Shown one piece after another: positions 51,508 to 62,734 of a stretch of 64,000 nt of DNA. The notes under the pieces are model-generated. The model saw nothing but the letters and a program-made list of their open reading frames with translations. It had not been told where the DNA came from and made no database searches. The DNA is taken from the IMG/VR virus record IMGVR_UViG_3300030107_008258, positions 80,419 to 144,418 of that record; one strand, written 5' to 3'. The stretch comes from a virus. How positions within the stretch are numbered: the first letter of the stretch is position 1; each line of letters starts with the position of its first letter. The translations under genes and the position numbers were made by a program.

Positions 51508-51586
51508 GTAAGTCGTTGACTATCAAGGACTTACGCCCTCGGCGCCCCCCGCGCAGCGCCTAAGTCGTTGTCAATCAGTGACTTAC
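51508..51586 (+). repeat. Twin-palindrome element, copy 1
   Basis: GTAAGTCGTTGACTATCAAGGACTTAC + 25-bp GC core + CTAAGTCGTTGTCAATCAGTGACTTAC. Confidence 0.95.
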
Positions 51587-51724
51587 GACTTGAAAAATCA
51601 AAAAAAATGCTTTTTTAGGATGGGTTTCCGTGCCAACTCTGCCGAAAAATAAAAATAAAAAAAATGAAAAAAAATGACTTTTATGCTTGCGTTTTTCTGT
51701 GGCTGTGCTATACTGTTTCCAGTT

Positions 51725-51871
51725 ATGAGAGATATGAACAACACAGATAAGGTTGAGCAGGGTTACGAGGAAGTTTGCACCGGATGCGGCGAAACGGTTT
51801 GCTTGTCAAAGGAAGAGCATGGTCAATGGGATCACGGGTTCGATGCGTTTATGTGCTGGGAATGCGAGTAA
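51725..51871 (+). CDS. Early zinc-ribbon microprotein
   Basis: CTGC...CWEC; TTGCGT-16-TATACT + GTTATGAG. Confidence 0.7.
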   Translation: MRDMNNTDKVEQGYEEVCTGCGETVCLSKEEHGQWDHGFDAFMCWECE

Positions 51872-51913
51872 ACGCTTGACTTTCCTTTAAAATCTGATAA
51901 GATAATTCCCGTT

Positions 51914-52147
51914 ATGAGAGATATGAAAACGTACACGTTGTACTGGAAGAATGAGGATACCAACAGGGTGAGCAGCAAAGACTTCACCAATGAATCTGGT
52001 GTTGACCATTCGGCAATGGACAAGGCTTTGGAGTTGGCCCAAGAAGCTGACACCAATATGTGGCCTTGGATACTGGAAGAGGACGGTTGCGAAATCGCCC
52101 ACGGTTGGGGTGGTGATATGTTGGGAGCCTACCGCTTTCAAGGTTAA
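51914..52147 (+). CDS. Early acidic small protein
   Basis: TTGACT-16-TAAGAT + GTTATGAG. Confidence 0.7.
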   Translation: MRDMKTYTLYWKNEDTNRVSSKDFTNESGVDHSAMDKALELAQEADTNMWPWILEEDGCEIAHGWGGDMLGAYRFQG

Positions 52148-52236
52148 AAAAATAATTTTATTGACAAGTGGCTGAATTGGCCTTAGTTTAGAAGAAGAGG
52201 GGGGAAGCAAACCTTCTCCCCATTAACCCAAAATAA

Positions 52237-52806
52237 ATGAAACGGATGAAAAATCCACAAACACAAGATGATTGGGCTGCGACAAGAGCAGCGTTATCCA
52301 TCCTGCCGCAAGAGCAACACGCCGACTACTTGGCGATGCTCAACGACACCAAAACGAGAGCCAAGGGGATTATGGCCAAAGCCGTCACCCTTGAGGTCAA
52401 GCCCGATAAGGCAACCGGCAGCAAGGTTCAGGAAAAGGCCAACAAGGCCAAGTCCTCGACCAAAGCCAAGTCCTCCAGCAAGAGGGCTGCTGTCGTCCAG
52501 AAGAAGGCGAAGGTCAACGGGGCCTTCATTACCTTCCACCAGTACTCAATGCTCCAGACGGTGCGTGAGTTAGTGGCCAACGGCGTTAACGGTGCAGAGG
52601 GGCTATCCTCAAGCGAGATCGCCGAATACCGCGACTGCGGCGAGACGGGGAGCGAGGTCTCCACCGTCCTTGACCGCCTCAAGGCCTACCGCATCATCGA
52701 TTGGCGGCTAGTCGAGGTGAGCAAGAAGCCGGACGAAAGCCAAACTTGGCCAAGCCGGAACTTCCCTAGTTCCACCAAGCGGCGGGAATTCACCCTATTG
52801 GGCTGA
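52237..52806 (+). CDS. Winged-helix DNA-binding protein with Lys/Ala/Ser-rich linker
   Basis: ITFHQYSMLQTV...LSSSEIAE....GSEVSTVLDRLKAYRIIDW MarR/LexA-like wHTH; terminator hairpin 52815-52838. Confidence 0.6.
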   Translation: MKRMKNPQTQDDWAATRAALSILPQEQHADYLAMLNDTKTRAKGIMAKAVTLEVKPDKATGSKVQEKANKAKSSTKAKSSSKRAAVVQKKAKVNGAFITFHQYSMLQTVRELVANGVNGAEGLSSSEIAEYRDCGETGSEVSTVLDRLKAYRIIDWRLVEVSKKPDESQTWPSRNFPSSTKRREFTLLG

Positions 52807-52848
52807 TCACTATACCCCTCCCCCTTTGGGGGGAGGGATTTTGATATC

Positions 52849-53385
52849 ATGGAAATTTATAGCTTCGACGAAGTAGAGGAAGGCCAGAATGCTGTCAAGA
52901 CGGCTATGGCTGAAGCCGGTTGCTTTGGGCCGGAAATGGAGAAACATTGTGCAGGTCAATCGCCAGAGAAGGATTTAATATCCTCGTTTATTCGATGGCG
53001 TAAAAAAATAACAACCATGCGAATGACGGTAACGGTCACGCAGGGACTAGGCAAGTACTTGGCTAACCTACTGAACAATGGGGATACTACCGGCATCCCG
53101 CCCAAGACTAAACCAAACATCAAGAAGGTGAATAAACCAGCTAATTGGCTGCGCCAGATGGAAGTTGAAGGCCTGTACAAACAATTCGGCGCGGATGACG
53201 TTGATGAAGTCATTGAACGCGTATTCAAGGCCTGTAAGGGCGGCGAGGTGGTCGATATCTCGGACGATGGTGAAAACATCGTCGAAACGGATCTCGACGG
53301 CTTAGACGTCAATCTAGACGTATTGGCGAGAAGCGAACAAATCCAAGCGTTCAATGTTCACTTTACCCCCAAGAAAAAAAGTTGA
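52849..53385 (+). CDS. Hypothetical protein
   Basis: 178-aa ORF filling the gap to the next promoter. Confidence 0.55.
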   Translation: MEIYSFDEVEEGQNAVKTAMAEAGCFGPEMEKHCAGQSPEKDLISSFIRWRKKITTMRMTVTVTQGLGKYLANLLNNGDTTGIPPKTKPNIKKVNKPANWLRQMEVEGLYKQFGADDVDEVIERVFKACKGGEVVDISDDGENIVETDLDGLDVNLDVLARSEQIQAFNVHFTPKKKS

Positions 53386-53432
53386 AAATAGTTGTTGACT
53401 TTTCCTGAAATTCTGATATACTAGTTTCCGTT

Positions 53433-60680: not shown

Positions 60681-60693
60681 GCCATGGATTTTT

Positions 60694-60888
60694 TCAAAAA
60701 ACTGAGTGTTCGCTTTCCTCGTACCCCGCCTCCCGCAAAAGTTGCGGGATAAGATTAACTTGGTTGGGGTTATCACAAACCAACCCGCTAGAGTTATTTA
60801 AATCTTTACGCCATGCAATCAAGTAACGAGTTGACGTATAACCATCACGCTTTTTAATGTCGTGAACTGTTACGCTATATTTTTTCAT
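60694..60888 (-). CDS. Hypothetical protein
   Basis: ATGA overlap with the upstream gene. Confidence 0.55.
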   Translation of the reverse strand: MKKYSVTVHDIKKRDGYTSTRYLIAWRKDLNNSSGLVCDNPNQVNLIPQLLREAGYEESEHSVF

Positions 60889-61067
60889 TCTTTTTCTTTA
60901 TTTCCATATTGGAGCTTTCGTTTTTTCCATCCGACTTGAATTCCCCTCTTCTTTGCCCATTTTTCGTAGGCGTTGTCGAATTCTTTTTTCATTCCCACGG
61001 CGACATTGTATGCCTCGTCGAAGGAGTCCGCTTGTTGTGTGTGTGTATTATTATTTCCTTGAATCAT
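60885..61067 (-). CDS. Hypothetical protein
   Basis: Overlapping operon arrangement. Confidence 0.55.
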   Translation of the reverse strand: MIQGNNNTHTQQADSFDEAYNVAVGMKKEFDNAYEKWAKKRGIQVGWKKRKLQYGNKEKE

Positions 61068-61473
61068 AATCGGTCAAGTTCTCTGCTGTAATTCGGCCCA
61101 AGTCATAAAAATCATATTTATTCTTTGTGGCCAAAAATCTCATTGGTTTGAATTCTGTAAATTTGAGGTCGGCCCACTCCCTAGCGTAAGGCATGACCCC
61201 ACCCTTCTTCCCCTTAAATAATGATAAGTTTCCCTCATTAAAGATTGCGTTAAGTGACAAGCTAACTAATGCTTTTTTTAATCTCGTTTGGCTTGTCCAA
61301 AAATATCCCAAGTAAGGTTTGACGCTATCGTTCGCCCATAATATGTTGCCGCTTGATGTGGCGGCATGATTCCAAAATCCCCAGTAGTGATGGGTGATTT
61401 CGTCCTTGTCATCACCTCTTATGCCTACGGCTACTTTTTTCTCTCCCTCTTGCTGTATAACATATTCAATCAT
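61051..61473 (-). CDS. Hypothetical protein
   Basis: 140-aa ORF in the same operon. Confidence 0.6.
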   Translation of the reverse strand: MIEYVIQQEGEKKVAVGIRGDDKDEITHHYWGFWNHAATSSGNILWANDSVKPYLGYFWTSQTRLKKALVSLSLNAIFNEGNLSLFKGKKGGVMPYAREWADLKFTEFKPMRFLATKNKYDFYDLGRITAENLTDYDSRK

Positions 61474-61545
61474 TTTTTATTTTTTTGGTCTAATATGATT
61501 CCAATAAGGATTCCCACCAGAATCAAAACGAGTGTTTCCACGGGC

Positions 61546-62280
61546 CTACATCTTAACAGTTGCGTTATACCCAGTAAAGCCTTTTTTCTTGTTTGCCATG
61601 AGAGCTTTGCTGGCTTCGCTCCCTGCTGGCTGGCTCCCGTGAATCACCAAAGCGAAATCATCCGAGCCAGAGATGGCCAAGTCATCGGTGTGGTCAATAT
61701 CCAAGCCGAGGGCTTCGGCTTCTTCTGTTGAAAAGAAAACCTTTGCAGTCTTGGTTTTTGACTTCGGGATTAACTTATCATACTTTCCACCACGGGAACA
61801 AGTGAAAACAAAATTGTCAGGCAAATCTTCCCCGACTAAAAAATTGATGCTTTTAGTATAGGAATAAAAAGTAATCTGCGGAAAAAACTTTGCAGCTATC
61901 ATCCACGCTCTGAAATAAGCCCGTGAAAAGTAATCGCCGCCGATATGCACCCGCAACGTACCGCCACGCCGTAGGCCAGAGGATTTGATACTTCTGATAA
62001 TCAAAGCAGCCATTGCCTTTGTTGTCTTGCAAGCCTTTAACAAGTCGAAATTGTGCCAGCGTGTTGCCCTAACATTAGGCCGTCTGGCTTCGTCCATCGC
62101 TGCGTAACAACGAAAGATAACACCGTCAACGGCTTTCTGTGCGTCCATGATCTTGCCTGTGATCTTGTCGGCAAAAGTCTTACAACTTTCAGCACCGGGG
62201 CAGGTGTGGCCGCTAGGAAGGGAGAAGTGCCAAATACCTTTTAGCTTGGCGTTTTCAAATGTGAATCGTAGTAAACTCAT
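61546..62280 (-). CDS. Gp88-like protein
   Basis: FSLPSGHTCPGA..C, CYA, LRVHIGGDYFS..Y..AW, FYSYTKS; promoter TTGACT-17-TACTAT + GTTATGAG. Confidence 0.8.
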   Translation of the reverse strand: MSLLRFTFENAKLKGIWHFSLPSGHTCPGAESCKTFADKITGKIMDAQKAVDGVIFRCYAAMDEARRPNVRATRWHNFDLLKACKTTKAMAALIIRSIKSSGLRRGGTLRVHIGGDYFSRAYFRAWMIAAKFFPQITFYSYTKSINFLVGEDLPDNFVFTCSRGGKYDKLIPKSKTKTAKVFFSTEEAEALGLDIDHTDDLAISGSDDFALVIHGSQPAGSEASKALMANKKKGFTGYNATVKM

Positions 62281-62335
62281 AACGTGAGAAGATAGTACCC
62301 TGTTCGGTGGTTCAAGTCAATCATAAAAATTTTTT

Positions 62336-62575
62336 TTATGAAAAAAGTTTGTCCCATCCCGCCGGACTAGTTCCAGAAATTAAAAATTCCCTATCCTCCA
62401 TACTTAATGATTTAAAAGCATGAATATTATCAGAGTTGCGAAAATCCCATAACTCTGACCCTTTAACGGTGACGCTGTAGGTTTCCCCTGTGACTAAACA
62501 CGCCCCACTAAACGTGTAAGTATGCTCTGGCTCATAACTCTCCGTATACTTTAGTCTGTCGATAGCTCTTTCCAT
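62336..62575 (-). CDS. Early hypothetical protein (L...DREFLISG..P..WD.LF motif)
   Basis: TTGACA-17-TATAAT + GTTATG. Confidence 0.7.
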   Translation of the reverse strand: MERAIDRLKYTESYEPEHTYTFSGACLVTGETYSVTVKGSELWDFRNSDNIHAFKSLSMEDREFLISGTSPAGWDKLFS

Positions 62576-62655
62576 AACGCCGTTAATTATAATATGATAA
62601 ATAAGGCTTGTCAACCCCTTAAATCATAAAAATATCTTTTTTTAAAACTTGACAC

Positions 62656-62734
62656 CTAAGTCGTTGAGTATCAATGACTTACGGCGGGCGCGGGGGTCGC
62701 CGCGGCCCTAAGTGCTTGGTAATCAGTGACTTAC
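62656..62734 (-). repeat. Twin-palindrome element, copy 8 (core inverted)
   Basis: Palindromes at 62656 and 62708. Confidence 0.95.

Follow-up and report, generated by a model that had tools for sequence, protein, structure and literature searches.

Twin-dyad elements with a GC-rich core between the early units of an uncultured marine phage: an apparently undescribed repeat family that may provide docking sites for host IHF

IHF sites near sigma-70 promoters, of which those at lambda PL and Mu Pe are examples, have the core WATCAR-N4-TTR. In E. coli, the BIME-1 or RIP (RIB) elements are found after transcription units and consist of two inverted GC-rich REP palindromes that flank an IHF site. 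A third kind of repeated intergenic DNA, the promoter-early stem-loop (PeSL) cassettes, is known from the T4-type phages RB49 and phi1 (PMC2839356). These three are the closest known systems to eight 79-bp elements in the IMG/VR record IMGVR_UViG_3300030107_008258, a 144,418-bp genome of an uncultured marine phage, the last 64 kb of which were analysed here (hereafter the window): IHF sites upstream of sigma-70 promoters, BIME-1/RIP, which has the same ingredients in inverse order, and the PeSL cassettes. We read the elements as pairs of mirror-symmetric docking sites around a GC-rich core, most likely for host IHF, and would put the probability of this reading at about one half. The eight copies, in window coordinates, are:

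51508..51586, plus orientation: E1, a 25-bp GC core with a dyad on either side; divergent gap, where it separates a minus-strand promoter from the first early promoter of the plus strand
53632..53710, plus orientation: E2, between two plus-strand units (tandem); next -35 box starts at 53821
55273..55351, plus orientation: E3, tandem; 3' of a cell-wall hydrolase gene (54708-55163)
56080..56158, minus orientation: E4, tandem; 33 bp past an intrinsic terminator and 39 bp ahead of a -35 box
56407..56485, minus orientation: E5, convergent gap; most diverged of the copies
59400..59478, plus orientation: E6, tandem; 20 bp past an intrinsic terminator
60602..60680, minus orientation: E7, convergent gap; 29 bp past a bidirectional terminator
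62656..62734, minus orientation: E8, tandem; consensus minus-strand promoter 42 bp downstream

The anatomy given for these elements by a first-pass annotation of the window, together with the eight start positions (51508, 53632, 55273, 56080, 56407, 59400, 60602 and 62656), is borne out in every copy. Two 27-bp imperfect palindromes (the dyads) are offset by exactly 52 bp, start to start and free of indels in 8/8 copies, and a 25-bp GC-rich spacer separates them. Once the copies are oriented +,+,+,-,-,+,-,- from E1 to E8, spacer positions 6-12 read CGGCGCC in all but copies 6 and 8, each of which has a single mismatch, and a run of C follows. This polarity is real, because the profile scores of the two orientations differ by 23-47 bits across the eight copies. 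The dyad centre is 3 bp, and the flanks are AT-rich and extend the dyad. Copies within the genome are 62-72% identical to one another. All of them lie within a single region of ~11 kb; a profile of the eight copies scanned over the whole 144,418-bp genome matches only these sites, in keeping with the first-pass remark that none was seen in the first 50 kb of the window, and a relaxed single-palindrome scan of the genome finds no solo palindromes. The elements occupy intergenic gaps at unit boundaries and are flanked by T-run and A-run tracts, again as first described. No overlap was found between the contig termini of the record, and the sequencing runs listed with this phage comprise 20 DNA and 0 RNA runs. 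As a separate observation, GC content in 2-kb windows is 42-48% over the element-bearing early region (window ~50000-62000) and 35-40% in the other 2-kb windows sampled, namely the first 10 kb of the genome and both sides adjoining the early region.

Like BIME-1/RIP, the elements are repetitive and extragenic and come after the 3' ends of units; both kinds bring IHF-type sequence together with a palindromic segment rich in GC. Unlike BIME-1/RIP they are built inside out: where the bacterial elements have inverted REPs round a central IHF site, here two IHF-type dyads flank one GC core, and the elements are phage-borne and restricted to the early region. They show no sequence similarity to REP, in a comparison that did not include the REP consensus itself. 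With IHF sites upstream of sigma-70 promoters the elements share the WATCAR-N4-TTR profile in the arm analysed below, the AT-rich tracts, and the placement of the nearer dyad ~85-100 bp upstream where a promoter is close. They differ in that the sites are 27-bp mirrored dyads, always paired round a GC core whose length is constant in any one genome, in that each phage has 8-14 copies, and in that some elements have no adjoining promoter.

The elements belong to a family that is large and apparently undescribed. An exact pattern (one full dyad, a gap of 17-37 bp, then the start of a second dyad) was searched in IMG/VR and found at least 119 stretches, to which 37 stretches from genome bins, mostly short phage-like contigs, were added; at least 224 unique twin elements were collected. 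Offsets, counted from 245 pairs prior to de-duplication, fall into classes:

offset 50 bp: 58 pairs
offset 42 bp: 56 pairs
offset 46-48 bp: 56 pairs
offset 51-53 bp: 37 pairs
offset 58 bp: 10 pairs

Within most genomes the offset is steady to 1-2 bp (a few spread more), and it differs among lineages. There are 8-14 copies per phage, and three related genomes (113-206 kb; two of them are rated complete, the third 83%) have their dyads confined to one stretch of ~7.5-11 kb. Mean GC of the spacer across the family is ~82%. Neither Rfam nor cultured phage records nor the literature searched by sequence and keywords yielded a description of a twin-dyad element; a near-identity search of a 6-kb region against cultured phages gave no match, and BLAST of the consensus dyad against cultured phages gave only chance-level matches.

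The first-pass annotation had envisaged two sharp bends, in phase at five helical turns, that present the core on a tight loop, and had itself named a spacing not conserved in relatives as grounds for giving that idea up. This is what the family displays: the full range of offsets is 38-61 bp, the main classes are 42, 46-48, 50-53 and 58 bp, and the 52-53 bp class comprises only close relatives of this phage. The in-phase tight-loop model cannot hold family-wide, because offsets of 42, 47, 50, 52 and 58 bp include half-turn differences.

The search pattern fixed most arm positions and so inflates apparent conservation; for this reason one arm that the pattern had left free was profiled. Its conservation, by position, is:

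W13 87%, T15 76%, C16 85%, A17 99%, R18 97%
N19-22 51-74%, T23 100%, T24 99%, R25 98%

The free arm thus has the pattern of the IHF core WATCAR-N4-TTR, with conserved TCAR and TTR and a variable N4 between them, and at the level of sequence the arms hold up as the IHF-type sites that they were first taken to be. At least one exact WATCAR-N4-TTR is present in 83% of elements, and the cores point toward the GC core in 186 cases against 120 away from it. In the genome under study the strict core, WATCAANNNNTTR, has 23 exact matches where base composition predicts 13.9, and 9/23 of these fall inside the 632 bp of elements. A search for an HU or IHF gene in this phage found none.

The two arms of a dyad vary independently. 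Watson-Crick pairs at arm positions 6-8 number 163, 161 and 270, against 182, 156 and 282 expected under independence, and counts of G-T and A-C at these positions are balanced; since the variable positions show no covariation, the arms are independent half-sites, TAAGT-nnn-TGA. The favoured conclusion is that the elements are double-stranded DNA sites and not RNA or hairpin elements.

The position of the elements relative to transcription signals carries the rest of the argument. Across the family, terminators within 90 bp halt transcription ahead of the element at 51 flanks and lie past it at 7; the strong sigma-70 promoters found within 160 bp face away from the element in 48 cases and toward it in 10. 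From these counts the usual order is terminator, element, promoter. The -35 box of the family promoters lies mostly 30-50 bp off the element edge. Many phages place the element between a terminator and the next early promoter. The corresponding signals in the window are:

56028..56047, plus strand: intrinsic terminator, shielding E4 against upstream transcription
59353..59380, plus strand: intrinsic terminator, shielding E6
60550..60573, both strands: bidirectional terminator adjoining E7
62928..62953, minus strand: terminator, upstream of E8 in the direction of transcription
51430..51458, minus strand: sigma-70 promoter TTGACT-17-TATAAT, -35 box 50 bp off the E1 edge
56197..56224, plus strand: sigma-70 promoter, 39 bp off the E4 edge
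62586..62614, minus strand: perfect TTGACA-17-TATAAT promoter, 42 bp off the E8 edge

Canonical intrinsic terminators stand immediately ahead of E3, E4, E6 and E7 and, in the direction of transcription, ~190 bp ahead of E8. Promoters fall into two distance classes, 39-50 bp past the element edge (minus side of E1, E4, E8) and ~100-111 bp past it (plus side of E1, E2, E3, E6), so that the nearer dyad lies at about -87 to -98 or at -146 to -159 from the start site. Since E1 is in a divergent gap, E5 and E7 are in convergent gaps and the other five (E2, E3, E4, E6, E8) are tandem, the elements mark unit boundaries regardless of transcription direction.

On the reading proposed here, the element is a fixed double-stranded DNA architecture, two 27-bp dyads set apart by a GC-rich core, with each dyad forming a mirrored IHF-type core in which YAA-N4-TTGATW overlaps WATCAR-N4-TTR. 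The phage sets it in DNA that is not transcribed, after the terminator that ends one early unit and before the sigma-70 promoter that opens the next. Where the promoter is close, the centre of the nearer dyad lies ~85-100 bp upstream of the start site, and a second class in this phage is at ~-146 to -159. A host bending protein of the IHF family would dock at DNA entry, ahead of any phage protein, bend the AT-rich flanks toward the promoter and separate neighbouring strong units. As a side effect of repetition, the linker of element, promoter and leader would provide homology for swapping, losing and reordering small gene cassettes. The anatomy, the family, the absent pairing constraint and the geometry are established by the results above, and the identity of the bound protein and the effect of its binding are what we infer. 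An architectural role upstream of promoters had been among those first suggested, and it fits the family-wide arrangement of promoters and terminators.

The same arm sequence recurs in another setting. A full-text search with it led to the terminator table in a paper on Stenotrophomonas phage DLP6, where the pairs described next are visible only as flanks of the tabulated terminators (PMC5349666). DLP6 (KU682439.2, our loci L158-L172) is a cultured, unrelated T4-like phage of 55.8% GC that has only a handful of genes in common with the marine phage. Its genome contains ~14 direct-repeat pairs of the 11-mer TCAACGACTTA, 25-26 bp apart, with 28 plus-strand copies against 4 minus-strand ones, and this unit is identical to the 11-mer of the twin elements. 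Each module follows a gene stop codon, and the modules are spread from 34.7 to 144.8 kb of the genome, over ~110 kb. After the repeats of the 12 typical plus-strand pairs come a GC-rich stretch ending in CTTTAC or CTTTT and, ~15-25 bp past it, a TATAAT-type -10 element, for instance GGTATAATGG; together these make up the next promoter. Part of these modules, GCTTTA, resembles a T4 MotA box. The DLP6 pairs are like the elements in having the same 11-mer, in abutting a GC-rich hairpin and in lying upstream of the next promoter; unlike the elements, they are direct repeats that follow the coding strand (28 vs 4), precede the terminator and occur genome-wide. BLAST of the DLP6 repeat pair against cultured phages returned only DLP6 itself. 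A resemblance of ACGACT to the T7 promoter was dropped because DLP6 is T4-like, and such phages are not known to carry a phage-type RNA polymerase, a gene for which no genome was searched here.

A further scan of IMG/VR found at least 120 stretches with direct arrays of the unit, spaced at 20-22, 24-30 or 33-34 bp. One unit thus occurs in unrelated phages, always in regulatory DNA by early or middle promoters, which points to a host protein that is present before phage proteins are made; this favours a host factor over a phage-specific protein, and IHF is the known protein whose consensus fits the unit common to these phages. A broader and rather doubtful extension is that a 12-bp unit, ATCAA-S-N-ACTTA, is a docking signal for a conserved host protein that many phages share, built by unrelated phages into their first-expressed DNA in at least three geometries (twin dyads with a GC core between them, direct pairs that precede terminators, and 21-bp arrays), of which the twin form might serve as a topological insulator or topoisomerase-loading pad. 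Were it true, bent sites clamping a stiff GC segment would let densely packed strong early promoters fire independently, and the elements would represent a new class of phage chromatin boundary.

A number of observations weigh against the assignment to IHF. The strict core is exact in only 24% of arms, and 72/224 elements lack any exact match to it. Sites for IHF are as a rule asymmetric, and a mirrored site holds the protein in one orientation at a time; the sites found here are mirrored dyads in which a second half-site replaces the A/T stretch 5' of the core, leaving as asymmetry only the mild bias of 186 vs 120 in core orientation. The IHF footprint is ~35 bp, so that direct arrays at 21-22 bp are too tight for full occupancy. 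Dyad offset depends on the lineage and includes half-turn classes, which means that no single three-dimensional shape is conserved, and the convergent gaps that hold E5 and E7 have no promoter close by. Presence of IHF in the host is assumed, and the bins with family members are labelled as many phyla, such labels being unreliable. Elements of related phages are not independent of one another, and p-values are therefore approximate. Two other candidates for the sites were set aside: the consensus sequences of matS, the FNR box, the ARG box, the DnaA box, CtrA, LexA and Fis were compared by eye and none fits, and a TTGACA -35-like box abutting the element, considered as part of a promoter, occurs at ~15/448 flanks with no usable -10 after it.

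Because of these limits, a phage-encoded or virion-injected regulator stays a serious rival, though on balance we think it unlikely. The dyads would then be operators through which a global regulator of early genes silences or activates from dispersed sites, as KorB does on plasmid RK2 and the stoperator repressor in mycobacteriophage L5. Dyad symmetry with independently varying half-sites suits a dimeric DNA-binding protein, the sites are limited to one early region in every genome examined, free-arm positions 21-22 (A 74%, C 67%) are conserved somewhat beyond what the IHF consensus needs, and the 21-bp arrays fit a small protein better than IHF. Genes resembling L5 gp82 and GP88 are moreover always found within the element-rich region of the marine phage and its three relatives (G000-G003); DLP6, which has only few genes in common with this phage, lacks both. 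No partner emerges from the protein families, none of which is common to every carrier: neither clustering of open reading frames (ORFs) round 119 loci with comparison of five genomes, nor Pfam searches of the small early proteins, including the 79-aa protein that DLP6 shares, gave a DNA-binding candidate common to all carriers, and the winged helix-turn-helix protein at 52237, to which the first-pass annotation had assigned a possible role, has a homologue in only one related locus. Occurrence of the unit in unrelated phages of very different GC content argues for a host partner, and sites 85-150 bp upstream of promoters are poorly placed for repression by occlusion.

The likeness to PeSL cassettes raises an alternative that we consider improbable, namely that the elements are mainly homology linkers for cassette exchange, deletion or circularisation, as the PeSL of RB49 and phi1. 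In both systems repeated regulatory linkers separate small early genes whose sigma-70 promoters are strong and have AT-rich DNA upstream, in a region where relatives, as sequence comparison shows for the present phages, shuffle cassettes. The make-up is different: a PeSL joins a promoter to a terminating stem-loop, and the 79-bp element holds neither, lying instead between a separate terminator and a promoter 39-111 bp outside it, with a hairpin followed by a T-run in 2/224 family members. The PeSL cassettes would have the same genomic role with a different composition.

The region of the elements in the window is a succession of small genes that have the leader GTTATGAGRGA in common and each possess a sigma-70 promoter and an A-rich stretch upstream (repeat families D3, D4 and D8). 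The linkers and leaders are:

51600..51737, plus strand: linker after E1, with GTGCCAA/ATGCCAA box, A-rich upstream stretch, early promoter and leader GTTATGAGRGA (families D3, D4, D9)
53724-53871: paralogous linker copy after E2
55364-55501: paralogous linker copy after E3
51716-51735, 51905-51924, 53424-53443, 53850-53869, 54395-54414, 55480-55499, 56226-56245 and 59607-59626: GTTATGAGRGA leader sites

The leader follows every early promoter, directly before the start codon, is also kept in the relatives L085, L143, L032 and L017, and marks one border of the common linker where cassettes diverge from one another. An RTGCCAA box lies 20-45 bp past E1-E3 (51630-51636, context GGGTTTCCGTGCCAAC, with copies in 53724-53799 and 55364-55439); in other phages the 100 bp next to family members are ~2.6-fold enriched for this box, which mostly lies 20-40 bp beyond the element.

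Among relatives, cassette order differs strongly, with blocks reordered in L143 and one block inverted in L032, and the unit of element, box, promoter and leader is kept beside different genes. Other junctions are stable: in the collinear relative L017 copies lie at orthologous positions with ~77% identity (E6 at 2654, E7 at 3861, E8 at 5840), the equivalent of E1 holds its junction position in L045, L064 and L085, and the cell-wall hydrolase gene remains together with its downstream element (E3) in L085 and L143, with ~0.6 kb extra between the two in L032. The comparison with PeSL cassettes, which the first-pass annotation had drawn, is apt, because relatives rearrange cassettes around a common linker of element, promoter and leader. 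The case for homology as the main function is that related contigs hold the same cassettes in altered order and orientation while the linker persists by different genes, that the paralogy of E1, E2 and E3 takes in the promoter module downstream of each and extends over ~230 bp, and that PeSL mini-circles form between such repeats without a dedicated recombinase (PMC2839356). Homology alone does not explain invariant TCAR and TTR beside drifting intervening bases across hundreds of diverged copies; it leaves the rigid within-genome spacing unaccounted for, and the promoter or the leader would host crossovers equally well.

Elements in the part of the genome that enters first might instead be iteron-like sites for replication initiation, packaging or entry recognition, which we regard as very improbable. 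Arrays of three or four ATCAACGACTTA units at 21-22 bp spacing (L210, L228, L232, L270, L294, L300 and ~24 more IMG/VR loci) stand, in 29/30 small contigs, at a divergent junction near the large-terminase gene, flanked to one side by that gene and a 189-aa gene and to the other by small rightward genes, a layout that looks like iterons or packaging sites; the AT-rich flanks of the elements would suit this too. Against it, 8-14 copies across 8-12 kb are unlike a single origin or pac/cos site, the centre is GC-rich and no unwinding element, the DLP6 pairs are scattered over ~110 kb, and no initiator gene is consistently adjacent.

Scarcely any credence attaches to the element as a folded single strand, whether a three-hairpin RNA (processing site, stabiliser or terminator) or a cruciform extruded by supercoiling, and this reading has largely failed its tests. 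Single strands of the copies do fold better than shuffled sequence (z -2.1 to -5.0), the flanks extend the dyad, and many GC cores of the 42-bp and 58-bp classes are small centred palindromes with a 3-nt loop. The arms, on the other hand, lack the compensatory pairs of a structured RNA, with double mismatches frequent; the eight copies split equally, four folding into three hairpins and four into one long hairpin; and spacer palindromy across the family scarcely exceeds that of shuffled sequence (4.1 bp vs 3.5 bp). The elements lie downstream of terminators (51 vs 7), their orientation is unlinked to transcription direction, and a hairpin plus T-run, the mark of an intrinsic terminator, is almost absent (2/224). 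Rfam, even at permissive E-values, places nothing on them. The one Rfam match noted in this region, to the manA RNA family (RF01745), lies between E5 and E6 (window 56932-57118, minus strand) and covers the full model at 49.7 bits (E 2e-10), just below the gathering score of 55.2.

That the elements are small non-autonomous mobile elements, of the type of miniature inverted-repeat transposable elements (MITEs) or REP/REPIN, or else sites for a site-specific recombinase (res, hix, lox or dif type), is barely credible: they are short, palindromic, multi-copy and intergenic, with T-run and A-run tracts readable as target duplications and a similar dyad at several contig ends of one bacterial metagenome-assembled genome (MAG), yet no resolvase (PF00239), integrase (PF00589) or Y1 transposase (RAYT/IS200) was found in this phage, its three relatives (G000-G003) or DLP6, copies keep orthologous positions in L017 at ~77% identity, identities of 62-72% within the genome do not indicate recent bursts, every copy is inside one ~11 kb region, and the odd 3-bp dyad centre is unlike serine recombinase crossover sites. 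Dedicated site-specific recombination and MITE-like mobility are therefore unsupported. The MAG in question, from a deep-mine sample, has a dyad pair with an AT-rich spacer at the ends of several contigs (L121, L122, L127, L136, L141, L145), a recurrence that suggests a multi-copy repeat; in L122 it is found in the upstream leader region of an ORF that starts at 7099.

Two further features of the window may be recorded. A 79-aa acidic protein (window 62336-62575, minus strand), expressed from the perfect TTGACA-17-TATAAT promoter adjoining E8, has a DLP6 homologue with 43% identity and no Pfam match. The leftward block contains giant ORFs of 2720 aa and 2748 aa (window 2864-11026 and 23055-31301, both minus strand) and a third of 1555 aa, the products of which might be virion or injected proteins.

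What the present analysis adds is a conservation profile free of search bias, family-wide terminator and promoter statistics, a covariation test and the link to the direct-repeat forms. Of these, the link to DLP6 makes the IHF question testable at the bench, with a cultured phage and its host. Should an IHF-like protein dock at the elements, a very large group of uncultured aquatic phages would organise its first-expressed genes by means of a host protein and a previously undescribed rigid module. The elements would then offer a sequence signature for early, host-takeover regions in metagenomic phage genomes, a possible explanation for the insulation between tandem strong promoters, and a physical basis for the shuffling of cassettes in these regions.

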